Shown here: piece by piece, positions 1 to 24,747 of the stretch | Layout: every line of letters starts with the position of its first letter | How positions within the stretch are numbered: position 1 is the stretch's first letter | Assembly: GCA_015494465.1 (NCBI GenBank) | Contig: WGBD01000006.1 | Location: forward strand, 10,431 to 74,430 | Direction: 5' to 3' | DNA: 64,000 nt | From: Candidatus Omnitrophota bacterium | GTDB lineage: Bacteria; Omnitrophota; Gorgyraeia; S143-82 | Translations under genes and position numbers: made by a program | The notes under the pieces: generated by a model | Seen by the model: only the letters and a program-made list of their open reading frames with translations | Told to the model about the DNA's origin: nothing | Databases searched by the model: none

Positions 1-2027
1 TCATCCAAAGACCTCTCCGCCTCCGCCACCTCCCGGGAGACTTCCTCCATCTCTCTGGACAATTCTGCTAATCTCTCACTTATCCGGGAGACCTCACCCT
101 TAATCTCGTTGAGCTTCCCGGTGAGGAATACCTCTTCCTCGTTCAATACATCCATCTGGGCTTGAGACTCCTTCAGGGCGGATTCGAGAGAAGACAGAAG
201 CCGTCTGTCCTGCTCCACCTTGCTGCGTATAGAGTCTATCTGCCTATCAAAGGCCCTCTTGTACTCATAGGCCTCATCAAGGGCCTTCTTGGCCTCCATC
301 AGTTCCCGGTCCTTCTCACCAACCAGCCTCTCGAGTTCCGTTTTTCTATCCTTTAGTTCGGAGAGGTGCCTCGGCAGGGCCCTTGCCTCACAGACCACAT
401 GTATCCAGTTATCCCTCTCCTCTATGACCTGTTCCACCCGGGCGATGATACTGCCTATGTCAAAACCTGCCTTCTCTATCCACAGGTCCACTTTACGGGG
501 CTCGGGCAGGGTTATGTAACGGGCCTCCAGATGAGAGAGCATATCCATCTGGGCGTTCAGGGCAGAGACCTCTGCCTTCAGGGCCTCCAGTTCGGCCTCC
601 AACGCAGAATACCTCTTGGAGGCCTCCCGTATCCTGTCCTCCGCGGAGGGGATCTGTCTGTCCTGTATCTCGGATATGCGGGCCAAGTCCTCCTCTATTC
701 GTCTTTTCGTCTCATCTACCCTGCGGTGAATATCTTCTAACTCCTTTTGGAGTTGTCCTTTTTGCTGGCGCACATACCTCAGCTCCGACTCCACAGATCG
801 GATGTCCAACTCCCTTTCCTTCTGCTCGTTCACCAGATCTGCGTGGGCCCGGTTCAGCTCGAACAGTCGCGCCTTTAAATTTTCGAGGTGCCTTTCCTTA
901 TCCACGACGGAAGAGAGGATCTCTGAGAGCCTTCTGTCCACCTCCGCGCGCTTTCGCTCGACCTCCTCCCGTCTGGCACGCAATTCCTCCAGTTCTCCCT
1001 CCATCGCGCATATCTGGCGCCGTCTTTCGTCCAGCCTGCCGGCTATCTGTTCCCCCTCCCGGTAAAACAGTTCCTTCTGGTGCTCGAATTCCTTGATCCT
1101 CTCCTCGTTCATAGATATCTTGAGGCCCGCCTGCTCGTAATCTCCAAACCGTGCGGAAAGTTTCTCCTGCACTTCATTTATCTTTTCCTCCAGTTCTATT
1201 ACCTTCATCCTCAGGCGTTCTATCTCAGCAGACAATTCCCCTTGGGCCTTCTCCTTGATATGTATAGAGGCCTTTATCGTTTCCAGTTCAGCGCTCAACT
1301 TTTCCCGCTCCCCTTCAATAGAGGAAAGGGAATGGAGTGCAAGGCAGGTCTCCTTCTCCTTTAACTCGTTCATGAGTTCTTGATAGCGCAGGGCCTTTTT
1401 GGCCTGACGCTCCAGAGAGGAGAGTTGCCGTTTCACCTCTGCCATGATGTCCGCCACCCGCAGGAGGTTCTGCTCAGTCTCAGCGAGCTTGCGCAGGGTC
1501 TCTTTCTTCTTGCTCTTGTACTTGGTAATACCCGCCGCCTCGTCAAAGACCAGTCTCCTCTCGTCGGGCTTTGCGCTTAACAAGAGGTCTATCTTACCCT
1601 GTTCCACTATGGAGTAGGCCTCCGCACCTATACCGGTACCCATCAGGAGCTCGTTGATGTCCTTTAGTCTGACCTGATTACGGTTCAACAGGTATTCACT
1701 CTCCCCGGAGCGGAAGAGGCGGCGGGTGATCACCACCTCGTCCGCGTCGTAGTTAAGGACCCGGTCGGAATTGTCGAACCACACCGAGACCTCAGCCATG
1801 TTCAGGGCAGGGATGCGATCCGTACCGTTGAATATCACATCCTCCATCCGGCTGGCCCGCAGAGAGCGGGTGCTCTGCTCCCCCAAGGCCCACTTGATAG
1901 CGTCTAAGATGTTTGACTTACCGCACCCGTTGGGCCCAACGATAATGGTTATCCCCGGCAAGAAGTCCAGAGATGTCTTCTCCGCAAACGACTTGAATCC
2001 GAATATCTCTAATCTCTTCAGATACAT
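1..2027 (-). CDS. smc: chromosome segregation protein SMC, N-terminal ~675 aa (gene continues beyond window start)
   Basis: Reverse-complement translation from ATG at 2025-2027 gives MYLKRLEIFGFKSFAEKTSLDFLPGITIIVGPNGCGKSNILDA, the canonical SMC head with Walker A GPNGCGKS. The rest of the region is E/K/R/L-rich coiled-coil-like sequence. It is absent from the ORF track because no stop codon falls inside the window. Confidence 0.85.
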   Translation of the reverse strand, partial: MYLKRLEIFGFKSFAEKTSLDFLPGITIIVGPNGCGKSNILDAIKWALGEQSTRSLRASRMEDVIFNGTDRIPALNMAEVSVWFDNSDRVLNYDADEVVITRRLFRSGESEYLLNRNQVRLKDINELLMGTGIGAEAYSIVEQGKIDLLLSAKPDERRLVFDEAAGITKYKSKKKETLRKLAETEQNLLRVADIMAEVKRQLSSLERQAKKALRYQELMNELKEKETCLALHSLSSIEGEREKLSAELETIKASIHIKEKAQGELSAEIERLRMKVIELEEKINEVQEKLSARFGDYEQAGLKISMNEERIKEFEHQKELFYREGEQIAGRLDERRRQICAMEGELEELRARREEVERKRAEVDRRLSEILSSVVDKERHLENLKARLFELNRAHADLVNEQKERELDIRSVESELRYVRQQKGQLQKELEDIHRRVDETKRRIEEDLARISEIQDRQIPSAEDRIREASKRYSALEAELEALKAEVSALNAQMDMLSHLEARYITLPEPRKVDLWIEKAGFDIGSIIARVEQVIEERDNWIHVVCEARALPRHLSELKDRKTELERLVGEKDRELMEAKKALDEAYEYKRAFDRQIDSIRSKVEQDRRLLSSLESALKESQAQMDVLNEEEVFLTGKLNEIKGEVSRISERLAELSREMEEVSREVAEAERSLD

Positions 2028-2067
2028 AGCAAGTATTATAACACGCTACCCTGTAGCAGATACACCC

Positions 2068-5000
2068 TCATTCGTAGAAAACCACGCCACCTTTTACCGG
2101 CAGGCGGGTGCGCTTGCCCGGCTGTAATAGGCGATTTACCGGATAGAACCTCGTCCTCCACGATTCCACAACCGAAAACATCGCGGATCTTTCCTCCCCA
2201 GTGAACAGATACCGCAACTCCCAGAGGAAGTTCACCGCATAATCTACCTTCCTGACCAAGTTCCTACCTTTCCTCTTGAGGATCTGAGAGAGATATTCCT
2301 TGACGAACGGATACCTACTACCTATCCCCAACCTATCCCAGCGCTCAGGATTAAAGGAGAGGAGGTTGAACAAGACCTTAGATCCCAAGCCCGGTGCCCG
2401 ACTCACTTTCTCACTGAGGAGTTGATAACTTAGAGGGACACCGCTCCAGGCCGAAACGAACCCCAACACCCCTTCCCGCGCAAGTAGGTCCAGAACCTTG
2501 AACGGATCGTAATAGGTATCCTCTATCCGGGTATTGGCCAGATCGTAGAGAAAGCGGGGAGACAGTCTAGAGCTGAGACTCGAGAGGGCCTCCAACCTCA
2601 AGCATTCCCCATAGGGGCCCATGTGGGATATAATGTGGAGAACAAGGTTCTCTGCCTTCCTCTGCAGGGAATCGTTACTCCGGAGGATGCGGTATATCTG
2701 GGAGCGATATTTTGGATACAACTTAGAGACGGTACTGCCTATCTTGAACAGGATCCCCTCTCCATTCGAGGTCAATACTCGCCTGGGCCTCCGAGAAAGC
2801 CTCTTCCAGATATACCACCCTGTCAATCCAATTACTGCAGGGAAGAACAACGGCGTAATGGAAAAGAGACTCGCCTGCAATAAGCTGTACTTGATTCCGT
2901 TCAAGGTCAGGGGCAATAAGAATAAAGCAAAGGAATTTAACTTAGTTCCAGCGCCTTCTTCCAATCGCATCCGGATCAATCTGGTGTCCAGCGTCCTATA
3001 GAACTTGCTCAGATCCTCTGCAGCATTTTTGACCAACTCCCTCTCATCCGGACGCATGCCTTTACCGACGAATCTCTCCTCAAATTCCCACAAAAGCCTT
3101 GCGTCGTGCTCGAAGTCCTGCATATGATTCAAATAGTACTCAATCAAGACATCGTTCACTTTTTCGTCTCCAGTCAACATACTCAAAACGCACAGGGCCG
3201 TCCTCCAGCGCGCATAGTGAGCGAGGTTGTTAAACCTGTCTGGCTGGACTCCTGCCCTAATCATCCGAGAAAACACCCTAGGATTAATCACTATCACATC
3301 GCGCAAGAACTTCCTGTAAGCCAAAACCCTTGCCTCGTCTTCGAAGAATTCCGCGATCCCACTGTAATGAGGCAAAAGGGTAAAATTGTAGGAGGCTTTC
3401 CATCCTGGAATCATCTTCGCACGGAACAAGATTGGCCAGGACTCAACGGGAACCATACCGCTCCCAGTATAATATATCGAAAAGAACTTAAGGATACCTG
3501 AATAAAAGCCCTCAAGCTCCTGTTTAGTAAAGTCCCTCGCCTTTCTTAAGCGCTCCAGATACATTTGGGCCCACTCTTGGGACTTCTCGGGATCTCTAGG
3601 AGCCAACGGCAACAGACTGTACAACGATATCACGATTGCAGGAGGTCCGTGATGTTTAGGTCCAACTTTATAACTTGAAAGTTTGCGCAAGGGGTTATAG
3701 TTTTTAGGGGGAAGGTGCCATAAGAACGATATGCTCGTGTGCTTCCACTTCTTGACGATCCGGGCCACAGGCATCTCCAGATCGATGGCGGGAACGGCGA
3801 AAGTTATAATCCCGCCGTTAGGATAGAAAAACACGAAGGCACCCATATCAAAAACCCGGGCCAATTCTCCTCCCATGGATTCTTTGCTCTTCGAGGAAAC
3901 GGTTATATGTAATATTGATTGAGAACCTATGGACAATGAGCCTATGCCTCTTAGTCTATTACTGGGTTTTATGTGGTTCGCCCGTTCGATTATCTCTCTA
4001 CTAGAGGGTAAACCAACGAATACCGGAAATGCATCGTTGACGCGGGGGAATAGATCTTCTATTCGAATGTGGTACTGCTTCCTCTTCATCGAGAACTCGC
4101 AAATCTTATTCCCCTCGGAGTCAAAGACAACTCGTTTTCCAAGATCGGGGAAGGATTCCACTGTAACCTTTCCCAAGATCAGATTGAGCTTACCCTGTCT
4201 CTTAATCAGTTTTATCACCCTCTTATTCTCGGACTTTTTCTCCACTTTGAAGATCGCTTCTTTCTTTATCCACCAAGGCAGGACCCGACGCACATTGATT
4301 TCTACCCTAGCCATACTCACCTGATAATGCGTCTTACGCCACGAATCGTACTCGACGATCTTCACCTTATCCTTATCTTCGCCTTTAAACCACATAAAGG
4401 TAGATTCTCCCAGTTCCCTCCATTGGCCGGGAGTATAGATTATGTCCAGATTCGGGTGCTTGCTAAGCACCCTAAAACGATTCTTGGCTTTATCCACCAA
4501 GATCACAAACACCTCTTCCCAGTTTATCCAATTTTCTCTCTTTAAATAGAAGGTAAACTTAATGTCAGGGCCTGCATTCTCCTCCAATACACCTTTCATC
4601 GTGTAAGAGCCATTCTTCAGCAACTCGTAAAGTGGACTGCCTTCCCAATACACGGACTTAGCAAATCCGCACTTATAACCGCCGAAGTCCAAAGAAAATG
4701 CCGATTGGTGCCCCACGAATACAGGATGCCTGGTCTTTACGAACTTCCCACTCTGCACCGGTTTAACATAGTCCGGGAACAGCTTGGCGGGGGACAACAC
4801 GAGCTCCCGTTTCCCGGACTGTCCGAAGACAAACTTATTGACCTCCTCCCAGCCTAAGAAAGAAGAAATACTCATCCCGTCTTTATCTTTACGATACAAG
4901 CGGGCTCGCATCCCATTCTCCGAGAAGACGAAATCGAGAGAAAAAGCATAAGAGAGCCTCTGTTCGTCTCTTAAGAGATCCACTCCACGCTTCAGGATCA

Positions 5001-8000
5001 TGCTTCCCACGACCGGGGTTATCTGTTCGTAAAAATCTATTATGATCGTTTTTTCTTTTTCTAATTCTAAGACTCGGGAGACGACTATGTACTTATTAAT
5101 GTCTACCCTTTTAGGTTGAGCCCACAACCCGGATAGACTCGTCCACTTGGGCATGCGTAGCATTACCCACTCACAATCGATTGGATAATCCCTGAAGAAC
5201 TTCTCTACGAGAGAAGAAGCCAATAACATCTTTTTACCACCAGCCGCGTTCGCAAAAGATATCTTCTTTATCTCTCTCCACCAAGACCCATCGTAAGGAA
5301 TGGACTTTTCTATGTAGGAAAGCATATCTAGAAAGGTCATGTCTTCCTTACCGTTGGGTACCTTGCAAAGGCAAAAAGACTTGGAAAGACCTGCTAAGAC
5401 CAGATAATACCTGTAATCTCGCTTCTCGTCCTCTGGAAAGGCGATGCAATACATAGCCTTGCGCATGTAATCTAGCTCCCAGTTGCGGGTTATTTTAAAG
5501 ATAGGGTCGATAGAATCAACTATCGGTTTTCCCGAACCCCCTTTTAACCCAATCCAGCTCACCGTCTTTCGAACATGCAGGGCTTTACTCACCGGAACCG
5601 CAACCAACGAGACCTTTAAGACCTTATCAAGCAACTGCTTGGCTATACCAAATTCGTCGAAGATCTCCACTCTAGCACCGTATATCACCATCCTCGGTAC
5701 CCACTGCCCTCCTAACGGATGGGGCTCCAACCACACGATAACTGGCACATAACGACCGCCTATCTGGGCCCCTACTACCGCTATCTTGGTCTCATTCCCA
5801 AGCTCAAGACCCAGCTTTTTTAGTTTGTTCAAGAAGGGTTTCCGCTTCTCTATGCCCTCCCAGATCACCTTCTCGTGTCCCTTCAAAAGATCCGCCACCT
5901 TAAGAAGGGAGTCGGTCGCAACCACACTGCGATCTCCGTGGAGCTCTAGGTAGAGGCTGGTAAGGAGGGACCTGGTAGCTTTGAAGTTGTCAGGCAGGCG
6001 GTTCACCGGTTTAGAGAAGTGAAGTTCGAAGTGCTTTCCTCCCCTTTTATCGGGGGCCCTCTGCCTGGGCCTTCCTAGATACTTAGCAAGTATCGGCGGC
6101 AAAACCACCTCTGGAGGGGATTTCAAGTTAGGTCCCCACAGGGACAAGTACTGGTCCAGATTATTCAGAAAGTCCCTCAGCCAGCGCAGATCCATGGAGG
6201 CCTTAAGGGGCAAACCTTTTATCTGATGATACCTCAACTCTACCCTATCCACGATATTGCCCCTACCCCAGTCGACCTCGTAATGCCTAAACACCTCTAG
6301 AGGGAAGGTGTTTGGTATGTTCAGTTCTTTTATCAACTCTTTTCCCGAATAGAACCTCACCACTATGTAGGAACTCCCCAGCGGATTGGTCTTTCTCCAG
6401 GCCTCAAGCCAATCCTCTTTGAAGCTAGGCAGGTGTTTCACTGCCTTTGCCAGGTAAAGCTGTTGAAAGTCCTGAAAGATCTTCAGGTCAGGATCCATCG
6501 AGCCAGTGTATTCTGCCACCCTCTCTGCTATCTCGTTCAGGGCCTCGATCAAAGGCCCGTATGCTTCTCGGGCCTTTTCCTCCTCACCTTCTTTACTGGC
6601 GATGAGATCCTTCAGCTCCCCTGCCAAGGGGACTTCAGCGATATCGACCTTCTCTGCCTCCAATCTGGACCGGACCTCCTCCAATAAGGAGCTGACTAGT
6701 GATGCTTTCCCTCGGCTAAACTCTACCATCCGCTTCAGGCTATCCTCCAACCACTTAAGCTCCCCTTTCCTCTTCTTCCACTGCTTGGGCTTGGTGAAAG
6801 AGAAGGTCTTTGCGTACCTGACGAGGGACTCCACTAACCAACCCTTTACCTCTTTCGAATCGATTATTCCCCTGGATAGGACTTCGTCTGTCGGCTCCTC
6901 CAGGGCATCGATCGCAGTTAGACCAATGGCAGGGATCAGGTTCTCACCAAGGGACCTAGAGAGGACGGTTCTTAGTCCATCCCAGAACTCCTCTTTGTTG
7001 TTCACCGCAAGCTCGCCCACGACGAAGGAGAGATAGGAAAGCACCATCATCCTAGACCAAGCAGAACGGTCTTCGATTCCCTTCAAGATCGGGGCGAGTT
7101 CGCCCTTTACCACGAACCAAGGTAAATCTTCTTCTGGGAGATCCAAGGGGCCACTCAGATCGTAGGCCAGAGAATCCAGCCTCTCCTCCATATCCTCTGT
7201 CTCCTCCAGCCCACGGGAGGCCAAAACCGCAGAAGCGAAGGCCTTAAAGGCCCTACCGTAAAGGTGAAAGATCCTCAGATCGCTCGCTAAGAGATAGTCT
7301 GCGTACCTCCCCAAGGACTTGACCTCCTCATTTTTGTCCCAGCGATCAAATCGCTCCAGGGCCACGACCAACATAAGCGATGGTAGAACTCCACCAGAAA
7401 AGGCCTTTCGATCGAGAATCGCCGGCATCTTGCCCTTGAGGAGAGATCGGATCCCCTCCAAAGACTTCCTCGCGGATCTGGGGATCCCTTGGGCAGACTT
7501 CGAGCTCAAGGTCTTTTCGATCACTGCCTTCACATCCTCAGGCCTGTCTAGCCACCAAAGCAGTATCAACAAGGGTTCAACTACTCCGGGATAGGTGAAC
7601 GAGAAACCACCGGAAAGGCGTTTGAGGGAATCGACGATCTCACTCAAGCCTTTTGGTTCTGACGGACCTGACCGGTCGAGGCGATAGACCACTGCCTCAA
7701 GTAGATCTGCCAGGAAGACTTCCTCCTCAGGTGCAATTCCGTCTACGGACTCCAACCTATCCTTCAAGGCAGAGACCCAGTTCTCTCCCTGAAGCAGGAC
7801 CAAGGCACATGAGAAAAGCATGCGATACTTCCTATAGTCGGGATGGGAGAGCAACCGCTTGATCTGGCCGATCAACCAGTTGGTTTGATCAGGGGATAGA
7901 GAAGAAAGATCTCGATTCAACTCTGCAAACCTCCCTTCCCCCAACAAGCCAGCAAAACGAAGAGCGCACACGAAGGGATCGGTTTGCCAGTAAGGTTCGC

Positions 8001-10983
8001 TGAAGGAGCGGAGCACATCCACCCTCCCGATCTCTAGGAGGGTCGCACTCCAGGCCCGGACGATCAACTCCTTACTGCCCTCCAGTGCACCGATTTCGTC
8101 TTCCCCCGCTGACCCTAAGGCCTCTGCTATCACCTTCTCATTTATAGCCCGACTCTTGACAAGATAGACCAAAAACTGGATCAAAGACTCTATGCCCCCT
8201 TCCCGTGCCACCCCCAGAAACACCCGAGCCACCGCGCTGGAATCCTCTTTCAGACTGACGGTGAAGGTCTGAGCGACCCCGGGATTATTGGAACTTATCA
8301 GGGCCCGAGAAAGCTCAAAAGAAAATTCGTCTATCTTAGAAGGGCTTGCTTCTCCCCCTCTCTCCCTGGCTAGGTCCATCCAAAACTTCACTATCCCCGT
8401 CGATAACCTGATCAACCTCTGTTTAGAGGCCGACTTTTTCGCAAAGGCCTTCACCCATTCGTCGCGAACAGTCTCAGGGCGAGATGCGAACACCATCGTC
8501 AACCACTCAGTTGCAGTAGGGAGGTCCTCTTTGAGAAGTCCGGGAAAGTCCTTCACCCGGTCCAATATCTCTCCCGCTACCTCGCTCTTCAACAAATCGT
8601 CGACTCCGACAGCCTTTTCCATCCCAAAGAAAGCTTTCGCGATTTCCTGAAATACTCCTTCGTAGGTATTACTGTAACGGATCCTTTCGTCCAACAACAA
8701 ATCAATGGCGTTCGAGAAGGCACTTATCCGGTGCTTCCACTTATCCAGATCCTTTGCGGTGGCGTTATAGCTGACCAGGAACCTGGCCAGATTACTCACC
8801 AGCAGATCTAAGGTCTCCCCCTCCACTTGGGCCCCTAACAAGACCATCATCGCGCTGGCGAATCTAATCCCCTCGAGCTTCTTGTCATCCGATGTCATCT
8901 CCTCCAAGTTAAATCTCCCAAAAGACCTCACCAGCGCACTATACACTGGGACATAGGCAGGTTCCCAGATCACCTCTCCTCTGGGGAAGAAGGGTTGAGC
9001 AACCCTGGTAACCCACAAATAGAACAATTCCGCATCCTTGCAGTCAGATATTGGTGCGGAATCGATCCAATCGGCCAATTTTTCAGGAGAAAGTCTGTCA
9101 ATCGTCTTCTGCCAACGGGGCGTATCCGCCAACAGCTCCTTCAACTCTTCAGCCGACTTCGGGGCTGCCAACTCGACCGTTTTTCCTTTGGACCCAGGGC
9201 GTTTGCCTTTCTTTTTCTTAACCGACAGCCCTAAAAGTGGTAAGAATCCAAGGGAGGGGAACAAGGCAGATCCCAAAACCGCGACCAAAAACAAGACCAC
9301 CCCGTCGCGGTTATCCTTTAGTAATCGAACTGCCCTGAGGAGCACCGTTCGGAGCCTATCGCTCCACTTCCCCGTAACTGGGCCCGCCTTCAGAGGGGTC
9401 TTCCAGGTGATAATCGTGCCCGTCCTCCTTGCCACCTCTCTCAACAACGGCCGAAGCGAGGGCTCTTGCTTCCAGGCCTCAAAAAAGGCATTTACCACCG
9501 AATAGGAGTGCTTCCCTCCCTCTAGACCCAACAGGTCTCTCAACTCTCTCAAGGTCGAGACGAACAGATCTACGGTCTGGTCTTCAGATAAGTAAAGACC
9601 GTCCCCAACTTGGGGGGTGGCGACCATCTCCAGCTCCGCGGTAGGAGCGGTTGGATCGATCTTCCTGACCACTATCAAGGATAACGGCAGGCACCCCGCC
9701 TTGACGGGGAGATTGGCACCGTTCTCAATCCAGGCCCGGGTAAAGATCTCCCCCACCTGTCCGCATAGGCCAATGCGATATTTCTCGTCGAACTCGCTAG
9801 CAATGGCCCCTTTAAAGAGGGGCAAGGGCAGACCTGTCTTCTCCTCGACGGACGAGACCCGCCCTTTGCTTCCGTAGGCTATAACCGTCTTGTCTGCGAG
9901 GTAGTCGTAGAGAATCGCGAGCCATTGGCCTCTTCCAAGCCCGATCACATCCACCAGCTCTAACCTGACATCCTCGGGATACCTCATCCCCAGTTCCCTC
10001 TCCAAGGCCTCTAATACCTCTTTTGAGACCTCCTCTTTGGCAAAACGGATGTCCTGATACCCTACCGGAACGGGAGCCAAACGCAAAAACCCTTGATCGT
10101 CTACCTCCTTGCGCCTCAACCAGGAAAATACCGACTTCATCTTTATCCCACCCAGGGCCCTGACCAACTTCTTCCCCCGAAAGGAGAAGGAGACGGGAGA
10201 GAAGAATCTGTCCAGATAGGCGCGTTTCCACTCGTAAGGGTCGTCGCTAGGATCGTCGTCGTACAACCAGCTACCCAGCACCTCTACACCCCGCAAGGGA
10301 GCCCTCTTGGAGTCCAAAGTCTTCTTCCCCCTCCGAGAGAGCCTCCGCTTGAGGTGATTTGCCAACAGGTACACCGCAAAGGCCTCCCTCAACCTCCTGT
10401 AGGCGGGATCGCTGGATATCTTCTCCTCCAGATCCCTGGCAACCTGAGAGTAGAGGTCTGCGCACTCCCGGGAACCGCCCTTGAACTTGACCTTCAGCTT
10501 CACCTGGGAGACGAAGAACCTGTCTTCCTTTCCCTCCAGATAACCACGAGCCGGCTCCACCCAAAAGAAGGGGAAGTCAACCAATCCCTCCACATCTCCC
10601 GCAACCAGTCTGCGCAGGAGGATCGTCTCGAGGTCCTCCTTAAACTGGTAATCCATCGCCAAGAGCAGCCTCCCCACAGGGTTGTGCAGGAGTTCAGGGG
10701 GAAGCGGAGGATAGCCCGGAGACAGGTTCACCCACAGGATCTCCGGTGGTATCCTGAGGAAGGTCTCAAACAACCTCTCCACCTCTGATCTGGATAGAGA
10801 TAACCCCTCCTTGGGATACAGGATCCGATAGGTCCCCTTTCCTACCTCCAGCCCCAAGGGCACGGAGAAGGAAGGGCTACCCCCCCAACCTGCCCAGGCG
10901 TAGCCCGGGAATAGGGTGGTCGTCCCAAATATAAAGGCCAGGAGGCAAGCCTTTACTCTCGTCCAAAAAGGATCAGACATCAT
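2068..10983 (-). CDS. giant (2971 aa) uncharacterised secreted / membrane-anchored protein; no recognisable catalytic family
   Basis: Uninterrupted 8.9 kb ORF. N-terminal hydrophobic signal/anchor (MMSDPFWTRVKACLLAFIFGTTTLFPGYAWAGW). Internal TM helix near aa 535-560 (VVLFLVAVLGSALFPSLGFLPLLGLSV) followed by the polybasic patch KKKKGKRPGSKGK. Long Leu/Glu/Ala/Arg-rich, probably helical-repeat, region. Two hydrophobic segments near aa 2680-2720 (FALFLLPLTL..., ITPLFFPAVIGLTGWYIW followed by KRLSRRPRR). SD-like GGAGGG about 9 nt upstream of the ATG. Confidence 0.8.
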   Translation of the reverse strand: MMSDPFWTRVKACLLAFIFGTTTLFPGYAWAGWGGSPSFSVPLGLEVGKGTYRILYPKEGLSLSRSEVERLFETFLRIPPEILWVNLSPGYPPLPPELLHNPVGRLLLAMDYQFKEDLETILLRRLVAGDVEGLVDFPFFWVEPARGYLEGKEDRFFVSQVKLKVKFKGGSRECADLYSQVARDLEEKISSDPAYRRLREAFAVYLLANHLKRRLSRRGKKTLDSKRAPLRGVEVLGSWLYDDDPSDDPYEWKRAYLDRFFSPVSFSFRGKKLVRALGGIKMKSVFSWLRRKEVDDQGFLRLAPVPVGYQDIRFAKEEVSKEVLEALERELGMRYPEDVRLELVDVIGLGRGQWLAILYDYLADKTVIAYGSKGRVSSVEEKTGLPLPLFKGAIASEFDEKYRIGLCGQVGEIFTRAWIENGANLPVKAGCLPLSLIVVRKIDPTAPTAELEMVATPQVGDGLYLSEDQTVDLFVSTLRELRDLLGLEGGKHSYSVVNAFFEAWKQEPSLRPLLREVARRTGTIITWKTPLKAGPVTGKWSDRLRTVLLRAVRLLKDNRDGVVLFLVAVLGSALFPSLGFLPLLGLSVKKKKGKRPGSKGKTVELAAPKSAEELKELLADTPRWQKTIDRLSPEKLADWIDSAPISDCKDAELFYLWVTRVAQPFFPRGEVIWEPAYVPVYSALVRSFGRFNLEEMTSDDKKLEGIRFASAMMVLLGAQVEGETLDLLVSNLARFLVSYNATAKDLDKWKHRISAFSNAIDLLLDERIRYSNTYEGVFQEIAKAFFGMEKAVGVDDLLKSEVAGEILDRVKDFPGLLKEDLPTATEWLTMVFASRPETVRDEWVKAFAKKSASKQRLIRLSTGIVKFWMDLARERGGEASPSKIDEFSFELSRALISSNNPGVAQTFTVSLKEDSSAVARVFLGVAREGGIESLIQFLVYLVKSRAINEKVIAEALGSAGEDEIGALEGSKELIVRAWSATLLEIGRVDVLRSFSEPYWQTDPFVCALRFAGLLGEGRFAELNRDLSSLSPDQTNWLIGQIKRLLSHPDYRKYRMLFSCALVLLQGENWVSALKDRLESVDGIAPEEEVFLADLLEAVVYRLDRSGPSEPKGLSEIVDSLKRLSGGFSFTYPGVVEPLLILLWWLDRPEDVKAVIEKTLSSKSAQGIPRSARKSLEGIRSLLKGKMPAILDRKAFSGGVLPSLMLVVALERFDRWDKNEEVKSLGRYADYLLASDLRIFHLYGRAFKAFASAVLASRGLEETEDMEERLDSLAYDLSGPLDLPEEDLPWFVVKGELAPILKGIEDRSAWSRMMVLSYLSFVVGELAVNNKEEFWDGLRTVLSRSLGENLIPAIGLTAIDALEEPTDEVLSRGIIDSKEVKGWLVESLVRYAKTFSFTKPKQWKKRKGELKWLEDSLKRMVEFSRGKASLVSSLLEEVRSRLEAEKVDIAEVPLAGELKDLIASKEGEEEKAREAYGPLIEALNEIAERVAEYTGSMDPDLKIFQDFQQLYLAKAVKHLPSFKEDWLEAWRKTNPLGSSYIVVRFYSGKELIKELNIPNTFPLEVFRHYEVDWGRGNIVDRVELRYHQIKGLPLKASMDLRWLRDFLNNLDQYLSLWGPNLKSPPEVVLPPILAKYLGRPRQRAPDKRGGKHFELHFSKPVNRLPDNFKATRSLLTSLYLELHGDRSVVATDSLLKVADLLKGHEKVIWEGIEKRKPFLNKLKKLGLELGNETKIAVVGAQIGGRYVPVIVWLEPHPLGGQWVPRMVIYGARVEIFDEFGIAKQLLDKVLKVSLVAVPVSKALHVRKTVSWIGLKGGSGKPIVDSIDPIFKITRNWELDYMRKAMYCIAFPEDEKRDYRYYLVLAGLSKSFCLCKVPNGKEDMTFLDMLSYIEKSIPYDGSWWREIKKISFANAAGGKKMLLASSLVEKFFRDYPIDCEWVMLRMPKWTSLSGLWAQPKRVDINKYIVVSRVLELEKEKTIIIDFYEQITPVVGSMILKRGVDLLRDEQRLSYAFSLDFVFSENGMRARLYRKDKDGMSISSFLGWEEVNKFVFGQSGKRELVLSPAKLFPDYVKPVQSGKFVKTRHPVFVGHQSAFSLDFGGYKCGFAKSVYWEGSPLYELLKNGSYTMKGVLEENAGPDIKFTFYLKRENWINWEEVFVILVDKAKNRFRVLSKHPNLDIIYTPGQWRELGESTFMWFKGEDKDKVKIVEYDSWRKTHYQVSMARVEINVRRVLPWWIKKEAIFKVEKKSENKRVIKLIKRQGKLNLILGKVTVESFPDLGKRVVFDSEGNKICEFSMKRKQYHIRIEDLFPRVNDAFPVFVGLPSSREIIERANHIKPSNRLRGIGSLSIGSQSILHITVSSKSKESMGGELARVFDMGAFVFFYPNGGIITFAVPAIDLEMPVARIVKKWKHTSISFLWHLPPKNYNPLRKLSSYKVGPKHHGPPAIVISLYSLLPLAPRDPEKSQEWAQMYLERLRKARDFTKQELEGFYSGILKFFSIYYTGSGMVPVESWPILFRAKMIPGWKASYNFTLLPHYSGIAEFFEDEARVLAYRKFLRDVIVINPRVFSRMIRAGVQPDRFNNLAHYARWRTALCVLSMLTGDEKVNDVLIEYYLNHMQDFEHDARLLWEFEERFVGKGMRPDERELVKNAAEDLSKFYRTLDTRLIRMRLEEGAGTKLNSFALFLLPLTLNGIKYSLLQASLFSITPLFFPAVIGLTGWYIWKRLSRRPRRVLTSNGEGILFKIGSTVSKLYPKYRSQIYRILRSNDSLQRKAENLVLHIISHMGPYGECLRLEALSSLSSRLSPRFLYDLANTRIEDTYYDPFKVLDLLAREGVLGFVSAWSGVPLSYQLLSEKVSRAPGLGSKVLFNLLSFNPERWDRLGIGSRYPFVKEYLSQILKRKGRNLVRKVDYAVNFLWELRYLFTGEERSAMFSVVESWRTRFYPVNRLLQPGKRTRLPVKGGVVFYE

Positions 10984-11042
10984 CTAACCGTAGCCCTCCT
11001 ACCTATACTAAACATTTTAATAATCCCTTAAAAAGTATTATA
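10984..11042 (-). promoter_or_regulatory. AT-rich intergenic island upstream of the giant ORF: putative promoter plus ribosome binding site
   Basis: A 59-bp stretch of markedly lower GC than its surroundings. On the minus strand it reads GGCCTCGTAATATAATACTTTTTAAGGGATTATTAAAATGTTTAGTATAGGTAGGAGGGCTACGGTTAGATG. It contains TATAAT-like hexamers and a GGAGGG Shine-Dalgarno about 9 nt before the start codon. Confidence 0.35.
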
Positions 11043-11636
11043 TTACGAGGCCTTTCGTATGCCAACCTCAAACTCGCTCACGCAGGTATCCCCGTACTCT
11101 CGCCTCCTAACAAGCCTAAGGCAATAGGTCTCGTTCAGGCGCATACGGCAATAGTGTTCCAGAAATACCCGCGCCTCGGGCTTGAGTATACCGTATTCAC
11201 AGATGGCCTTTAGGGTGCTCCGTTCCCACCTGCCGTGGTAGGGGGGGTCTATGTAAACCACATCCACCTCTATCTCCTTGGAGGCCAAGAACTTAATAGA
11301 CCTCTTAATCCCCCAAGGCAGGATTATACAGCCCTTCTCCGGAAGGACTGAAGGGGCCACCACATAGGGTTGCCCCACCAACGAGAGATTTTTCTCTATG
11401 AGTTTGACGACCTCCGGATCCTTCTCGACGAATATCACCCGATCCATCCCCCGGGAGAGGGCCTCTATTCCCACCGCCCCGGATCCGGCAAAGAGGTCAA
11501 GGAAGGTTCCGCCTGAGAAAAACTCCCCCAATACGGTGAACAAGGCCTTACGGACCTTGGTACTGGTAGGGCGTATCTTGGCTATAAATCTGAGCTTTTT
11601 CCCCCGGTACCTGCCACCTACAAGGGTAAGGTGCAT
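11043..11636 (-). CDS. rsmD: 16S rRNA (guanine966-N2)-methyltransferase RsmD
   Basis: 197 aa. SAM-MTase motifs LDLFAGSGAVGIEALSRG and the N6/N2-MTase signature DPPY (VVYIDPPY). Confidence 0.85.
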   Translation of the reverse strand: MHLTLVGGRYRGKKLRFIAKIRPTSTKVRKALFTVLGEFFSGGTFLDLFAGSGAVGIEALSRGMDRVIFVEKDPEVVKLIEKNLSLVGQPYVVAPSVLPEKGCIILPWGIKRSIKFLASKEIEVDVVYIDPPYHGRWERSTLKAICEYGILKPEARVFLEHYCRMRLNETYCLRLVRRREYGDTCVSEFEVGIRKAS

Positions 11637-11642
11637 CTTGTA

Positions 11643-12044
11643 TTAAAACAGCCTCTTTGCCCTGCCGTTGAGTTCACTCTGACGGGCGGACTCGCACTTC
11701 ACGCAAAGGGTAGCGGAGGGCATTATCTTGAGCCTGCCCTTTGGGATGGGCTCCCCACAGCCCTCGCACAGGCCGTAGACACCGCGCTCTATCTTTTCCA
11801 AGGCGTACCTCAAGGCGGACAACTGCTCGTACTCCTTGGAAAGGATACCGGCGGAGAATTCCTTGTCGTATATCTCTCCGGACACATCAGCCATGTGCAT
11901 GCTGTAAACGGATGTCCTTTCCCCTCCTAAGGTCTCCCCGGAGATGCGCTTTATCTCTTCTTCCAGGCGCTCTATCTCCTTCAGAATTATCGGCTTAAAT
12001 ATCTTCTTCATCTCCGTCTTGGTAAGAGGCTTAGCCTTAGCCAT
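11643..12044 (-). CDS. DksA/TraR-family C4 zinc-finger transcription factor
   Basis: 133 aa with a C-terminal CEGC-x17-CVKC, the exact CxxC-x17-CxxC spacing of DksA/TraR zinc fingers. N-terminal region is coiled-coil-like. Overlaps the ileS 3' end by 8 nt. Confidence 0.7.
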   Translation of the reverse strand: MAKAKPLTKTEMKKIFKPIILKEIERLEEEIKRISGETLGGERTSVYSMHMADVSGEIYDKEFSAGILSKEYEQLSALRYALEKIERGVYGLCEGCGEPIPKGRLKIMPSATLCVKCESARQSELNGRAKRLF

Positions 12045-14778
12045 CTGCCCGTACCTCCCTATTTTCCAACTGCCTGACCACCTCCGTACAGCGAGGACAT
12101 AACTCCGGCCATTGCTTATCCATTCCCACCTCGGTTGACCAGTTCCAACAGCGCAGGCACTTCTTACCGCTGGCCCTCTCCACCCTGACCATCCGCTCCT
12201 GTCCCTTCTCCAGTTCCACTCCGGACACTATAAAGACATACTTCAGGAAATCTGCGTGCCTCTGTATCAGCCTGTAATCCTCATCTGGCAAGTATAATAC
12301 AATACTGGCCTCAAGTGAACTGCCGATCAAATCTTTTTCCCGGGCCTCCTCCAAGGCCTTAAGGACCATGTCGCGAATCTCCATTATCAGATCCCACTCC
12401 CGGCGCTCCTCAGGGGACATCTGAGGAAGAGACTCTGGCCAATACTCCAGGTGCACCGATTCCCCTCCCACCAGATGCTCCCAAACCTCGTCCGCGGTGA
12501 ACACCAATACCGGCGAGACTATCTTGGCAAGGGCAACCCCTATCTCGTACAGACTGCTCTGGGCGGACCGGCGCTCCAAGGAGTCGGGTGCGCTAACATA
12601 CAACCTGTCTTTGAGGACATCCAGATAAAACGAACTCATGTCTATGTTGCAGAAGTGGTATATCTGCTGAAACACCTTGGGGAAGTCGTAACTGCCGTAG
12701 GCCCGGTCCACTAACTCCACCAAAGTAGCGAGACGATCCACTGCCCACCGGTCAATGGAAAGGCGAGAAGAGAACGGGATCGCGTTTTCCTGGGGATTGA
12801 AGTCGTAAAGATTGGCAAGGATGTAGCGAAATGTATTCCTGATCTTGCGATAGGCATCTGCCATCTGCTTGAGTATGTCTTCAGAGAGCCTTACATCTGC
12901 CTGATAATCCGAGGACAGGACCCACAACCTCAGGATGTCCGCACCGTAATTCTTCAGGACATCCTGGGGGGATATCACATTGCCCAGGGACTTGGACATC
13001 TTCCTCCCCTGTCCGTCCACGACGAAGCCGTGGGTAAGGACCGCCTTGTAAGGAGCAATACCCCGAACCGCAGTGGAAGGTATGAGGGAGGATTGGAACC
13101 AACCACGGTGCTGATCGCTCCCTTCCAGATACAGATCCGCGGGGAAACTCAACTCGTTGTCCGCCTCCAGGACCGCAGAGAAACTACCCCCTGACTCAAA
13201 CCACACATCGATGATGTCCTCCCCTGGGGAGAAGTCATTGACCCCGCACTTTGCACACTCCTTACCTTCCACCAATCCACCGACTTCCTCGCTGAACCAG
13301 ACATCCGAGCCCTTCTCCGCTACCAGTCTGGCAAGGTTCAGTATCACATCCACATCCAACAACGGCTCACCGCAGGCCCTGCAGTAGAATACCGGGATGG
13401 GCAGGCCCCAATAGCGCTGGCGGGACAGACACCAATCAGGACGGTCTTTTACCATCGCCTTTATCCTCTCCCGACCTGAGGCAGGTATCCACTTCACCGA
13501 ATCTATGGTCCGCAGGAGTTCTTCCCGCAGGCCCTTGTGGTCCACCGACAGGAACCACTGATAGGTTGCCCGGAAGATTATCGGCTTCTTACACCGCCAG
13601 CAATGAGGATAGGAGTGGATTAATTTGGAAGAGTAAAGGAGTCGACCCAACTCCGACAGCCTCTGCAATATCAACTCGTTGGCCTGCTGTATGTCCTTGC
13701 CTTCCAGTTCCGGAAAATCAGGGGTATTGAAGAACCTACCTTTCTCGTCCACCTGCATTATCAGGTCCAGACCGCACCTCACCCCCAGTTGGAAGTCCTC
13801 GTGCCCGTGCCCCGGGGCTATGTGCACGAATCCGCTTCCCTCCTCAGCGGAAACGAAGTCCGCCAAGACCACCTTGGATACGCGCGAGAGAAACGGATGC
13901 CTGTACTTCTTACCTTCCAGATCCCTACCCCGCCTGCGACTTTTGACCTTCAGATCCCGCCCCAACAACTCCTTCACAGCAGGCAGACGGCTCTCAGCGA
14001 GGTAAAGTGCCTTATCCCCGTCCTCTACCAGGATGTAATCCAGATCCGGATGGACTGCAACTGCGGTATTTGCGTAAAGCGTCCAAGGGGTGGTCGTCCA
14101 TATCAGGAGGTAAACACCCTCCTGACCCTCCAGAGGGAACAGGACATAGATGGAGGGTGATTCCTTATCGTAGTATTCAACCTCCGCCTCCGCCAAGGCG
14201 GTCTCGCAACTCGCACACCAGTGCACCGGCTTGCGCCCACGATAGATGTAGCCCTCCTTGACCAGCATAGCGAACAATTCGTACAACCGGGACTCGTACT
14301 TAGGAGATAATGTCAGGTACGGCCTCTCCCACCTGCCCAACACCCCCAAGCGCTTGAACTCTGCCCTCTGGATGTCCACGAATTTAAGGGCGTACTCGTG
14401 GGCCATCCTGCGAAACTCCAGTTTGTCCACCTCGTGCTTGGTCTTGCCCAACTCCTTGAACAGCTGGTGCTCCACGGGAAGCCCGTGACAGTCCCAACCC
14501 GGCACATAGGGACAGTCAAAGCCCTTCAGAGTGTGGTATCTGATAACTATGTCCTTCAGTATCTTGTTCAGGGCGTGGCCCATGTGGATGTGTCCGTTGG
14601 CATAAGGCGGACCGTCGTGGAGGACGAACTTCTCTGCCCCACTGCGGGCCTCTCTTATCCTCCCGTAAAGGCCCATATCCTCCCACTTTCTGAGGCGTTC
14701 GGGTTCCCTCTTGGGCAGGTTCGCCCGCATAGGGAAGTCCGTCCGGGGGAGATTTAGGGTGTCCCTGTAATCGCCCAT
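12037..14778 (-). CDS. ileS: isoleucyl-tRNA synthetase
   Basis: 913 aa. HMGH (HIGH-class) motif PYANGHIHMGHALNK, KMSKS motif ([10 protein letters not shown]), C-terminal Cys cluster CLRCWNW...CPRC. Confidence 0.92.
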   Translation of the reverse strand: MGDYRDTLNLPRTDFPMRANLPKREPERLRKWEDMGLYGRIREARSGAEKFVLHDGPPYANGHIHMGHALNKILKDIVIRYHTLKGFDCPYVPGWDCHGLPVEHQLFKELGKTKHEVDKLEFRRMAHEYALKFVDIQRAEFKRLGVLGRWERPYLTLSPKYESRLYELFAMLVKEGYIYRGRKPVHWCASCETALAEAEVEYYDKESPSIYVLFPLEGQEGVYLLIWTTTPWTLYANTAVAVHPDLDYILVEDGDKALYLAESRLPAVKELLGRDLKVKSRRRGRDLEGKKYRHPFLSRVSKVVLADFVSAEEGSGFVHIAPGHGHEDFQLGVRCGLDLIMQVDEKGRFFNTPDFPELEGKDIQQANELILQRLSELGRLLYSSKLIHSYPHCWRCKKPIIFRATYQWFLSVDHKGLREELLRTIDSVKWIPASGRERIKAMVKDRPDWCLSRQRYWGLPIPVFYCRACGEPLLDVDVILNLARLVAEKGSDVWFSEEVGGLVEGKECAKCGVNDFSPGEDIIDVWFESGGSFSAVLEADNELSFPADLYLEGSDQHRGWFQSSLIPSTAVRGIAPYKAVLTHGFVVDGQGRKMSKSLGNVISPQDVLKNYGADILRLWVLSSDYQADVRLSEDILKQMADAYRKIRNTFRYILANLYDFNPQENAIPFSSRLSIDRWAVDRLATLVELVDRAYGSYDFPKVFQQIYHFCNIDMSSFYLDVLKDRLYVSAPDSLERRSAQSSLYEIGVALAKIVSPVLVFTADEVWEHLVGGESVHLEYWPESLPQMSPEERREWDLIMEIRDMVLKALEEAREKDLIGSSLEASIVLYLPDEDYRLIQRHADFLKYVFIVSGVELEKGQERMVRVERASGKKCLRCWNWSTEVGMDKQWPELCPRCTEVVRQLENREVRADG

Positions 14779-19717: not shown

Positions 19718-20403
19718 CTCTTAAGGCGAGCTATCTCATCCATGACCCGCTGACCTATCCGTTGGGCGAGCTCCTTATCCAGACGCTTGCCTTTGCCTTT
19801 ATGCCCGGAGAAGTCCAAGGGTCTCCCGATCACTACCGTGATCTTACTTGGGGAGAGCCTGACCGCCCCTCTAGGTAGGGCCTCAAAGGTCCCTTCTATA
19901 AACACCGGAACCACTGGCAAGCCCGTTGCCTGCACGACGAATCCCAGTCCCGGTCTAGGAGGAAGGAGCTCACCCGTCGGGGTCCGCTCCCCTTCAGGGA
20001 ATATCACAAACGGCTGGTTGGTGCGCTGAAAGTAGGTGATCCAGCGGAAAAACCTCTTAAGATCCCGAGGATTTGGCGAGATCGGCACCGCACCTTGAGA
20101 GCGGATCAGCCAAGTAAAGACGGGATTGAGCTCAAAGAGCTCGTGTTTGGCGAAGTAGCGCAAGGGCCGACCCAAAAAGGCTATACCTATCAACGGGGGA
20201 TCCAAGTGGCTTTCGTGGTTTGGAGCGACAATAAAACAGCCCTCTGGGATGTTCTCTCGACCGTAGACCTTTAGATCGTAGCCAAAGTGATAGAACGAGC
20301 CCACCACCCCTACCGAGAGCCAGTGGTAGAGGAACCTAAGTGGAAGCAGTGCCCTATTAAAAAACCAGTCCCAGACTACATCCTTAGAACTGGATGTCTT
20401 CAT
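19663..20403 (-). CDS. plsC: 1-acyl-sn-glycerol-3-phosphate acyltransferase
   Basis: 246 aa. Acyltransferase motifs NHESHLDP (HxxxxD) and FPEGERT. Confidence 0.85.
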   Translation of the reverse strand: MKTSSSKDVVWDWFFNRALLPLRFLYHWLSVGVVGSFYHFGYDLKVYGRENIPEGCFIVAPNHESHLDPPLIGIAFLGRPLRYFAKHELFELNPVFTWLIRSQGAVPISPNPRDLKRFFRWITYFQRTNQPFVIFPEGERTPTGELLPPRPGLGFVVQATGLPVVPVFIEGTFEALPRGAVRLSPSKITVVIGRPLDFSGHKGKGKRLDKELAQRIGQRVMDEIARLKRWLETEHPDRIVRRESSG

Positions 20404-23832: not shown

Positions 23833-24747
23833 TCAGAAGTGTTTAAATCCCCTCGGGCCCAACGGCACCACGCTCAATCCATCCCTTAAGTACAATCCAA
23901 CTTTACCCGATTCGAGGACCTTCCCTATGGGATAAAACTTATACCTCGTATTAGGTAAACTTGCGTACAACCTGCGGGAGTCCTTCTCGTCCATACAGAA
24001 AAGAAGTTCGAAGTCCTCACCCATGTAGAGGGCCTCGTCAAACGAACGGGCGTCCTTGTGCAGGGGGATCTTCTCCCTTATCAATTCCGCAGTGCAATTG
24101 CTCTCCTCAAGTATGTGATAGAGGTCCGCCACCAAACCGTCGGAGATGTCTATCATGGCGGTTGGGCGAAAATTAATCACCAGATACCTGGCCTCAGGGA
24201 TCCGGGGAGAGACCAGCATGTGCCGACCGTAGATGCTCCCTCCCAAGGGGCCGGATACCCATATCCAGTCCCCCTTTCTGGCCCCGGATCTGGTGACCAG
24301 CCTGTCTTTCTCAACCTTCCCAATGCAACTCATACTCAGGTAGAGCACATCGCTCCTTACCGTATCCCCTCCCACGATCTCCACCGAGAACAACTCCAAC
24401 AAGAAGCGCATGCCCTCGAATATCTCCTCCAGATCCCGATCCTCAACATAGCCCGGCACGCCGACATCCACGGTAAGCCAGAGGGGATAGCCTCCCATCG
24501 CTGATATGTCGCTCAGGACCGCCCCAACCGCCTTCCTGCCGATCAATCCTTTGTCAGGGATGTTGAAGAAAAAGTGCTGACCGTCCACGATAGAATCGCT
24601 GGCCACAAGCAAGTAGTCATCCTTCAACCCGACATCCAAGACCGCAGAATCGTCTCCTATCCCGACGACTGTATCCTTCCTGCGGAGGGAAGCGAACCTG
24701 GATCGGATGTCTGCTACGAACTGAAACTCGTCCTTAACCATCCTCAA
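23833..24747 (-). CDS. thiL: thiamine-monophosphate kinase (PurM-like AIR-synthase fold)
   Basis: 304 aa. PurM-superfamily N-terminal motif [12 protein letters not shown]. Length and layout fit ThiL rather than PurM, HypE or SelD. Confidence 0.7.

Follow-up and report, generated by a model that had tools for sequence, protein, structure and literature searches.

A 64,000-nucleotide (nt) stretch of genomic DNA from a Candidatus Omnitrophota bacterium (GenBank assembly GCA_015494465.1, contig WGBD01000006.1), here called the window, encodes a protein of 2,971 amino acids (aa) that is the largest paralogue type of a small undescribed protein family. Judged by their sequences, the members of this family are marked by a Sec-type signal-like N-terminus, a domain of ~250 aa that ends in an invariant Gly-Gly (N-dom) and a C-terminal tail with the motif GG[ILV]. 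We are highly confident that the gene of the 2,971-aa protein, referred to below as the giant (P0001), is genuine and forms an orphan family. With regard to function, we favour, at a probability of about 40%, a non-enzymatic membrane-anchored scaffold of an envelope-glycan or coat machinery, in which N-dom and the GG tail would serve as targeting or docking elements. A first-pass annotation of the same DNA, made from the sequence alone, had suspected that the giant is part of something undescribed, and this suspicion is supported by our analysis.

A protein family defined by N-dom and a Gly-Gly tail

Pfam scans of the giant and of the three aligned giants P0001-P0003 gave no match even at E <= 10, and NCBIfam and PADLOC scans of the giant were empty as well. 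In the PDB, profile searches with the whole protein and with N-dom alone found nothing, and a single-sequence search returned only two chance matches to an enoyl-CoA hydratase (E 0.76 and 0.92). The first-pass annotation had likewise been unable to place the protein in a family, and the confident homology to TamB/AsmA, adhesin or glycoside hydrolase proteins that it had named as contrary evidence did not turn up. Anti-phage defence was considered as a function and rejected, since a PADLOC match is absent.

A word-indexed search of 5.8 billion clusters, run with the single sequence and with an alignment to the same outcome, retrieved the giant itself and only two further proteins, P0002 (3,057 aa) and P0003 (3,034 aa), which are collinear with it over the full length at 28-31% identity and are best conserved at the N- and C-termini. 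A scan of species-representative genomes yielded only two relatives, both truncated (L004 and L005, both from Candidatus Omnitrophota), and a metagenome scan yielded no confirmed relative. The family became visible through an exhaustive HMMER search with a profile of residues 1-1200 against 1.84 billion cluster representatives, which gave 28 matches, all of them at their own N-terminus. The matching part, the first ~290 residues of the giant, heads ~30 protein clusters, and the longest protein found with this profile has 3,057 aa. Such counts are lower bounds, as ORFs (open reading frames) cut by contig ends are apparently missing from the searched indexes; partial orthologues from three close relatives (L009-L011, see below), ~82% identical to the giant, never came up in the protein searches.

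Nine columns of N-dom are invariant among 23 aligned sequences (W84, L87, D111, K115, W141, P144, R199, G278 and G279). The domain is further characterized by the motifs WVNL.P, G..LL..D..LK.D, R.WI.P, LKV, N....Y..LR and the terminal GG, all of which are present in the giant, and a local hidden Markov model (HMM) of N-dom built from 28 members recognizes the window ORF with E = 7e-81. Scans of the members revealed no Pfam or NCBIfam model that covers the domain. The four named clusters (P0013, P0020, P0024 and P0026) are all labelled 'hypothetical protein [Candidatus Omnitrophota bacterium]' and, like loci L004 and L005, all come from Candidatus Omnitrophota. Outside N-dom, the members diverge. 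P0004 and P0005 (~2,250 aa) resemble the giant in three parts: ~290 residues at the N-terminus, the membrane segment together with the polylysine patch, and ~240 residues at the C-terminus, which include a conserved domain of 230 aa (C-dom). P0004 matches the profile of the three giants for this domain with E = 3e-15. The middle regions of P0004 and P0005 have no detectable homology to the giant. The other matches (367-2,531 aa) share N-dom only, situated behind a signal-like segment. A separate observation concerns a 3,243-aa Omnitrophota protein (L012:146-9877) that combines N-dom (E ~1e-99) with an unrelated body and whose C-terminal end, ...EEERAVATPKELKEILTTIG, is common to an adjacent 1,069-aa N-dom protein and P0027. 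As its body is unrelated, N-dom-led proteins have reached ~3 kAA (thousand amino acids) at least twice.

The second hallmark of the family lies at the opposite end. GG[ILVM] occurs within the last 20 residues of 19 of 29 members, compared with 3% expected from the background rate in the same proteins (binomial P ~1e-22). Among 163 ORFs of >=250 aa from the window and the fetched loci, the tail was present in 9 of 11 complete N-dom ORFs and in 1 of 152 others, with 3 of the 9 tail-bearing N-dom ORFs found only after the motif was first noticed. The motif is followed by 3-18 mostly hydrophobic, strand-like residues, five in the giant (...PVKGGVVFYE); other examples are KGGIVFNE, GGILIK, KGGVVF, AGGILLFAL, KGGIDLGRVSLVYLPRIQ and GGLLLSAVKVRFFQ. 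N-dom itself closes with the same motif, GG[IVF]x[LF], and members that lack a terminal tail often have an internal GGIDL or GGIDF followed by a further domain. An internal GGIDL was observed in P0025 (C-terminus, residues ~1420-1493), P0020, P0022, P0027 and P0028, where it precedes a longer conserved module, ...GxxIKF...GFTPVIINITPI..F.GL, and the short GG tails may be remnants of this longer GGIDL module. A full-text literature search for the GGIDL motif returned irrelevant papers only. The N-dom or GG-tail signature was likewise not found in the papers on Omnitrophota giant proteins that were consulted (PMC10066038; bioRxiv 10.1101/2023.11.21.568195; bioRxiv 10.64898/2026.06.07.730766) and, on this limited evidence, has not been described previously.

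Several members carry enzyme domains, namely a central PGM/PMM domain (P0009, P0014 and P0017), a trehalose-synthase-like GT1 (P0010 and P0011) or HAD/PMM plus CofD (P0012 and P0015). One genome can contain several types. GCA_054040295.1 encodes at least five N-dom proteins: P0002 (3,057 aa), the GT1 protein P0010, one protein with HAD+CofD, P0019 (1,107 aa) and one with PGM/PMM (1,394 aa). Moreover, two genomes have a set of seven genes in common (L008:235-7591 and L013:10001-17574 plus downstream genes). Both loci start with two N-dom genes, one for a PGM/PMM protein and one for a protein of ~1,105-1,107 aa, the order of which is swapped between them, and continue in identical order with Bac_transf, two unknown genes, GT9 (Glyco_transf_9) and dCMP deaminase.

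Integrity, inheritance and constraint of the giant gene

The minus-strand frame begins with ATG and has 0 internal stops, which confirms the uninterrupted 2,971-aa frame of the first-pass annotation and adds the strand, which had been left unstated. Its GC content follows the order GC3 > GC1 > GC2 (third, first and second codon position) in 10 of 10 blocks of 300 codons. An independent ENA assembly from another sample record (L003) is 100% identical across all 8,916 nt, showing that the frame is no assembly artefact. In addition, an orthologue of ~82% identity lies directly after rsmD in three close genomes (L009, L010 and L011), which qualify as close relatives by IleRS identities of >=90% and in all of which the orthologue is cut by a contig end or scaffold gap.

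Comparison with these orthologues gave a ratio of nonsynonymous to synonymous substitution rates (dN/dS) of 0.16-0.18 (Nei-Gojobori, 1,560 codons). Thus, purifying selection acts on the giant along the tested length. The ratio is lowest in N-dom (0.08 for residues 1-200). For the neighbouring genes ileS, secDF, rpsA, ruvB, dksA and rsmD, dN/dS is 0.01-0.08 at comparable dS, so that by this comparison the core genes around the giant evolve 3-10 times more slowly than the giant itself.

The three short-read assemblies of the close relatives break inside the giant gene within ~250 nt of each other, at gene nt ~1,965-2,216, and the L009 sequence resumes only past gene nt 2,640. Hypervariability among strains may explain why assemblies break in this segment, as may a problem of coverage; no repeat was found in the corresponding window DNA. 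Neither Tandem Repeats Finder nor seed extension detected DNA repeats in the giant gene, an Rfam scan of window positions 1-13,000 gave no match, and the codons of the polylysine patch form no long poly(A) run, so a slippery tract is absent there. The coinciding breaks might suggest that the frame arose by misassembly or gene fusion or belongs to a pseudogene, an explanation that we regard as hardly conceivable given an identical 8,916-nt frame in two assemblies, full-length collinear homologues of 3,034 and 3,057 aa in other genomes, purifying selection on both sides of the break region and coding periodicity maintained throughout.

The first-pass annotation described the gene as inserted between rsmD and smc. 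However, its codon usage lies inside the spread of the neighbouring genes, and at least four relatives (L002, L009, L010 and L011) keep the junction between rsmD and the giant. Host-like codon usage and conserved synteny point to vertical inheritance, and a horizontal insertion was rejected on these grounds. In the 3' third of the gene (window 3000-5500), GC drops to 0.45-0.47 compared with 0.53-0.56 elsewhere and GC3 to 0.54-0.59 compared with 0.63-0.73, while codon usage remains in the host range. This low-GC section coincides with the alpha/beta region of the protein, which is richer in K, N, F, Y and I.

The downstream side of the locus is less stable. The P0003 gene (L002) is preceded by secDF-ileS-dksA-rsmD as in the window, but is followed by rpsO-pnp-ftsK instead of smc. 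The P0002 gene (L001) lies downstream of a chemotaxis cluster, the relatives in L004 and L005 downstream of an MMPL gene, and the relative in L006 between CNNM genes and a pectate-lyase-like gene. As the relatives have other neighbours, the adjacency to smc is accidental, and the link to rsmD exists only within one lineage. Hence, of the rsmD-giant-smc synteny, the rsmD junction held up in four or more genomes and the smc half did not, and the suggested tie to chromosome segregation was rejected. Across the family loci examined, the giants have no conserved partner gene, and no secretion-system gene was consistently found near the loci of giants or other N-dom proteins.

Architecture, topology and genomic setting

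The signal-like N-terminus, the membrane segment at residues 561-588 with its polybasic patch KKKKGKRPGSKGK and the C-terminal hydrophobic stretch followed by KRLSRRPRR, all noted in the first pass, are present (Table 1). Its description of what lies between them had to be modified. A helix-rich region exists, but it spans ~950 aa (about residues 600-1540) rather than ~1,900 aa and is free of repeats: self-BLAST of the protein revealed none, nor did hhalign comparisons of 250-aa blocks (maximum probability 1.1%). It is followed by a mixed alpha/beta part from ~1540 to ~2440, which is richer in K, N, F, Y and I and has the conserved motifs PHPLGG (1754-1759) and WWR (1901-1903), and by a helical part over the C-terminal ~500 aa. 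None of the motifs Walker A, HExxH, GxSxG, CxxC and LPxTG is conserved among the three giants P0001-P0003.

Two AlphaFold2 (AF2) models were built, both on three-sequence alignments. The model of residues 1-1200 has a mean predicted local distance difference test score (pLDDT) of 49 and reaches moderate values only at residues 40-215 (65-83) and 610-720 (60-85); residues 600-1200 are all-helical. The model of residues 1772-2971, with a mean pLDDT of 32, is unusable; it appears mixed to ~2420 and helical at 2445-2945.

Table 1. Coordinates of the giant, its parts and other features of the window
Feature	Residues (aa)	Window position	Strand	Remarks
Complete ORF, P0001		2068..10983	-	2,971 codons + stop
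Signal-peptide-like segment	1-31	10891..10983	-	Basic n-region, hydrophobic core, A-W-A then G
N-dom	~40-292	10108..10866	-	Delimited by HMM search and alignments; most constrained part (omega, i.e. dN/dS, 0.08)
Poorly conserved stretch	293-560	9304..10107	-	18-25% identity to P0002/P0003; low AF2 confidence
Hydrophobic membrane segment GVVLFLVAVLGSALFPSLGFLPLLGLSV	561-588	9220..9303	-	May be a single transmembrane (TM) helix or a re-entrant hairpin
Polybasic patch KKKKGKRPGSKGK	589-601	9181..9219	-	Directly after the hydrophobic segment
Helix-rich, non-repetitive, alpha-solenoid-like region	602-~1540	6364..9180	-
Mixed alpha/beta region, K/N/F/Y/I-richer, lower GC	~1541-2444	3652..6363	-
Helical region before C-terminal hydrophobic stretch	2445-2680	2944..3651	-	Low-confidence AF2 model
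Hydrophobic stretch, hairpin-like	2684-2726	2806..2934	-
Polybasic KRLSRRPRR	2727-2735	2779..2805	-
C-dom	2736-2963	2095..2778	-	Conserved; only in 2,250-3,060-aa subfamilies
Tail K-G-G-V-V-F-Y-E	2964-2971	2071..2094	-	GG[ILVM] tail; G2965 and G2966 invariant
Assembly breaks in close relatives	~655-880	~8345-9020		L009:15760 (run of 100 N), L010 end, L011 end
Upstream gap of giant gene		10984-11042		30.5% GC vs ~54% locally
Shine-Dalgarno AGGAGG		10995-11000	-	11 nt before the ATG of the giant
Sigma-70-like promoter match		11037..11065	-	TTGGCA-17-TATAAT, 11/12; overlaps rsmD 3' end
smc 5' part		start at 2027, runs beyond window	-	Directly downstream of giant gene
rsmD (Cons_hypoth95)		11043-11636	-	Directly upstream of giant gene
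DksA-type zinc finger (dksA)		11643-12044	-	Upstream block
ileS		12037-14778	-	Upstream block
secDF		14778-16940	-	Upstream block
Prephenate dehydrogenase (PDH_N/PDH_C)-cytidylate kinase fusion		20384-21889	-	501-aa ORF
lptD		24744-26819
T2SS-E/PilB-type ATPase		27462-28661	-	16 kb from giant gene
LpxC-FabZ (FabA-like) fusion		40267-41586	-	439-aa ORF
bamA		43288-45621

The N-terminus of the giant reads ...GYAWA/GW, the slash marking the end of the signal-like segment, and the signal-like pattern is kept in the homologues. The leader is of the same style as those of BamA and LptD encoded in the window, a resemblance that would place N-dom outside the cytoplasm. Around segment 561-588 the net charge is +8 after and +2 before the segment, so that by the positive-inside rule the following ~2,100 residues would lie inside. 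The polybasic patch is kept in P0003, P0004, P0005 and L004 and is weak in P0002. P0002 and P0003 have an equivalent of stretch 2684-2726 that measures 34-38 aa; the 2,250-aa subfamily lacks it. Since this subfamily possesses C-dom without the stretch, the latter would form a hairpin that leads the chain back to the same side. Most of the giant may thus reside on the cytoplasmic side, although this prediction is ambiguous. Comparable, implausible predicted localisations have been reported for Omnitrophota giant proteins (bioRxiv 10.1101/2023.11.21.568195).

The neighbours of the giant gene are all housekeeping genes on the minus strand. The close spacing of 59 nt upstream and 40 nt downstream, the AT-rich upstream gap and the Shine-Dalgarno sequence agree with the first-pass description. 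The promoter listed in Table 1 is a consensus match only, and such sites do not exceed shuffled expectation in the region. The rest of the window likewise belongs to the core genome (rpsA, ispH, the pdh-cmk fusion, aroE, ruvB, lptD, clpC, mcsB, bamA, dnaB, radA, lpxC-fabZ, glmU and tyrS). The presence of LpxC-FabZ, lptD and bamA identifies the host as a diderm with a lipid A outer membrane. LpxC and FabZ are fused in one ORF, as are prephenate dehydrogenase and cytidylate kinase, the latter fusion occurring in L002 and L009 as well. Besides a T2SS-E/PilB-type ATPase gene, no other secretion or pilus gene was found among the window ORFs scanned.

Possible roles of the giant and its family

According to the reading that we favour, the giant would be a scaffold anchored in the inner membrane, with N-dom on the periplasmic side and the bulk on the cytoplasmic face, that organises or tethers envelope-glycan or surface-coat machinery. 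This machinery would take in the enzyme-bearing paralogues (PGM/PMM, trehalose-synthase-like GT1 and HAD+CofD), some of which are encoded beside Bac_transf and GT9, and N-dom and the GG tail would be the common targeting or docking elements. The scaffold character is suggested by the all-helical model of residues 600-1200 together with the lack of a conserved catalytic motif, and a role in envelope glycan or coat biogenesis by the enzyme-bearing paralogues and their conserved Bac_transf/GT9 neighbourhood. A bolder version, which we consider doubtful, goes further. Here, N-dom and the GG tail would constitute an Omnitrophota-specific targeting or head-to-tail docking system that brings the giant and the PGM/PMM, GT1 and HAD/CofD enzymes together as separate parts of a single membrane-associated machine of the envelope or coat. 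Such a machine would be an unfused version of the multi-enzyme giants of 10-150 kAA known from this phylum. Its logic would resemble that of PEP-CTERM/exosortase or cohesin-dockerin.

A number of observations weigh against the scaffold. The AF2 models are poor; because of this, the solenoid assignment is of low confidence. The topology is contradicted in part by the relatives, as the charge bias around the membrane segment is reversed in P0002 and two hydrophobic segments precede the polylysine patch in P0004 and P0005. No TM segment separates N-dom from the enzymes in the sugar-phosphate/nucleotide-sugar paralogues. Under the signal-peptide reading, the PGM/PMM and GT1 paralogues would be exported, an odd location given their sugar-phosphate or nucleotide-sugar substrates. 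A simple docking model is weakened by the predicted position of N-dom and GG tail of the giant in different compartments. In the family loci examined, the giant never adjoins glycan genes, and since its neighbourhood is not conserved, the link to glycans is provided by the paralogues only. Finally, the faster evolution of the giant would equally suit a role in host interaction.

Such a role is the first alternative to be considered, and a possible though unlikely one. The giant would be a host- or prey-interaction protein, either displayed on the surface or delivered into the host, with N-dom and the GG tail as export or sorting signals. In kind, though smaller, it would resemble the giant coat or adhesion proteins of Omnitrophota, and it would enter a foreign membrane by way of its hydrophobic hairpins, as chlamydial Inc proteins do with their bilobed segments. 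Omnitrophota have been described as host-dependent or predatory, and roles in attachment or in attacking cell walls have been suggested for their large ORFs (PMC10066038; bioRxiv 10.1101/2023.11.21.568195). Besides the 3-10-fold faster evolution, this idea would account for paralogues with constant head and tail and variable 'cargo', for the signal-like N-terminus of all members and for the hairpin-like hydrophobic stretches of 28-38 aa. P0024 also matches a chlamydial inclusion-membrane family, but weakly and below the threshold (E = 0.0011, 18 bits compared with 90). On the other hand, Pfam revealed no adhesin, lectin, dockerin, hydrolase or peptidase domain, self-BLAST and hhalign found no repeats, and the gene is part of a block of core housekeeping genes whose synteny is stable, without a secretion-system gene consistently nearby in the loci examined. 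Furthermore, dN/dS is well below 1 throughout the tested parts, and the polybasic patches favour a cytoplasmic bulk.

The compartment problem would disappear if the giant were a wholly cytoplasmic, peripherally membrane-bound scaffold with monotopic or re-entrant anchors, devoid of a cleaved signal peptide and TM helices. N-dom, the paralogue enzymes and the GG tail would then all be in the cytoplasm, and the protein might be a cytoskeleton-like or cell-organisation element. In support of this, PGM/PMM, GT1 and HAD+CofD follow N-dom without an intervening TM segment, one GG motif closes both N-dom and the protein, and the hydrophobic stretches are Pro/Gly-rich mid-way or split in two and have basic residues on both flanks. 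C-dom, moreover, is common to members without the C-terminal stretch, so that the stretch would return the chain to the same side. We nevertheless judge this arrangement to be quite improbable. The N-termini look like ordinary Sec signals with a basic n-region and an AxA-like end, as in BamA and LptD, and DeepTMHMM surveys assign a signal peptide plus TM segments to 39% of long Omnitrophota proteins (bioRxiv 10.64898/2026.06.07.730766). Cytoskeletal or SMC-related domains were not found, and the adjacency to smc is not conserved.

Two further proposals fare much worse. The first-pass annotation had envisaged an envelope-spanning protein, possibly an adhesin or S-layer-like, and the size, the signal-like N-terminus and a lineage known for large putative adhesins (PMC10066038) would fit a repetitive surface protein of this kind. 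However, internal repeats are absent at the DNA, protein and profile level, Pfam detected no Ig, cadherin, beta-helix, SLH (S-layer homology), dockerin or RTX domain, and the positive-inside rule places the bulk in the cytoplasm, with the ambiguity of topology mentioned above. We consider this very improbable. Slightly less credible still is a bridge-like lipid-transfer protein of the TamB/AsmA/YhdP type spanning the periplasm. Like these, the giant is a large, N-terminally anchored envelope protein (~3,000 aa, with an N-terminal hydrophobic anchor) of a diderm that possesses BamA, LptD and LpxC. Unlike them, it has none of their domains (no Pfam match to AsmA, AsmA_2 or DUF490 at E <= 10 in P0001, P0002 and P0003), the PDB profile search was empty, and residues 600-1200 and 2445-2945 are predicted to be mainly helical without a long beta-taco, as far as low-confidence AF2 models permit. 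Internal membrane segments and polybasic patches are also unsuited to a soluble periplasmic groove.

The helical part invites comparison with HEAT, ARM and TOG solenoids, which is a statement about fold class and not about homology (TM-scores of 0.2-0.28 at a pLDDT of mostly 40-65); in contrast to HEAT/ARM proteins, neither a Pfam HEAT/ARM match nor sequence repeats were found in the giant. The tail resembles C-terminal sorting signals. In GlyGly-CTERM/rhombosortase, PEP-CTERM/exosortase and LPXTG/sortase systems, a motif is followed by a TM helix and a basic cluster at the C-terminal end. Similar are the short C-terminal motif on otherwise unrelated paralogues of one genome, the Gly-Gly itself and, with respect to PEP-CTERM, the position of some N-dom members beside polysaccharide genes such as Bac_transf. 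In contrast, the GG of the giant is followed by VVFYE only, and throughout the family 3-18 residues follow without TM helix or basic end. There is no PEP or LPXTG motif, LPxTG being absent from P0001-P0003, a sortase-like partner was not identified for the N-dom family, and, unlike these systems, the family has a conserved N-terminal domain along with the tail.

Very large ORFs, mostly unannotated and associated with membranes, are a known trait of Omnitrophota and have been proposed to function in attachment or predation (PMC10066038; bioRxiv 10.1101/2023.11.21.568195; bioRxiv 10.64898/2026.06.07.730766). They include the 'Archaeovorin' type (Kizina 2022, cited in PMC10066038) and multi-enzyme types. 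The giant shares with them the phylum, the great and mostly unannotated length and fast evolution, and its signal-like start and hydrophobic segments recall the predicted class that dominates among them, a signal peptide plus membrane segments. In multi-enzyme giants, PGM/PMM and GT1 domains recur (bioRxiv 10.64898/2026.06.07.730766), i.e. the same enzymes as in the N-dom paralogues, a hint that the N-dom family may be their unfused counterpart. At 2,971 aa, however, the giant is 3-50 times shorter and below the 10-kAA and 20-kb thresholds of the catalogues, and its hydrophobic segments are limited to two internal stretches and the signal-like one, where those giants have tens to hundreds. SecA_DEAD, C39, S8, GT, methyltransferase, NUDIX and dockerin domains, which occur in those giants, were not found in it (Pfam, E <= 10), and dockerin (PF00404) and TSP3 (PF18884) repeats gave no Pfam match either.

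To a specialist, an orphan ORF of 3 kAA in this phylum is unsurprising; what is new and concrete is the family signature and the context of the paralogues. Omnitrophota are ultra-small bacteria that occur widely, are uncultured and probably depend on hosts. The very large orphan proteins of this phylum pose a recognised problem, as they are too long, too divergent and, in assemblies, too fragmented to study. The N-dom family offers a more tractable entry, with only ~3 kAA, conserved synteny and measurable purifying selection. Through N-dom and the GG tail, the giant is tied to small sugar-enzyme paralogues and to the conserved Bac_transf/GT9 neighbourhood. If head and tail serve targeting or docking, they would represent a new phylum-wide principle of protein sorting or assembly and provide a handle to predict which Omnitrophota proteins act together. 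If they do not, N-dom is still a new domain family of ~30 clusters outside Pfam and NCBIfam.

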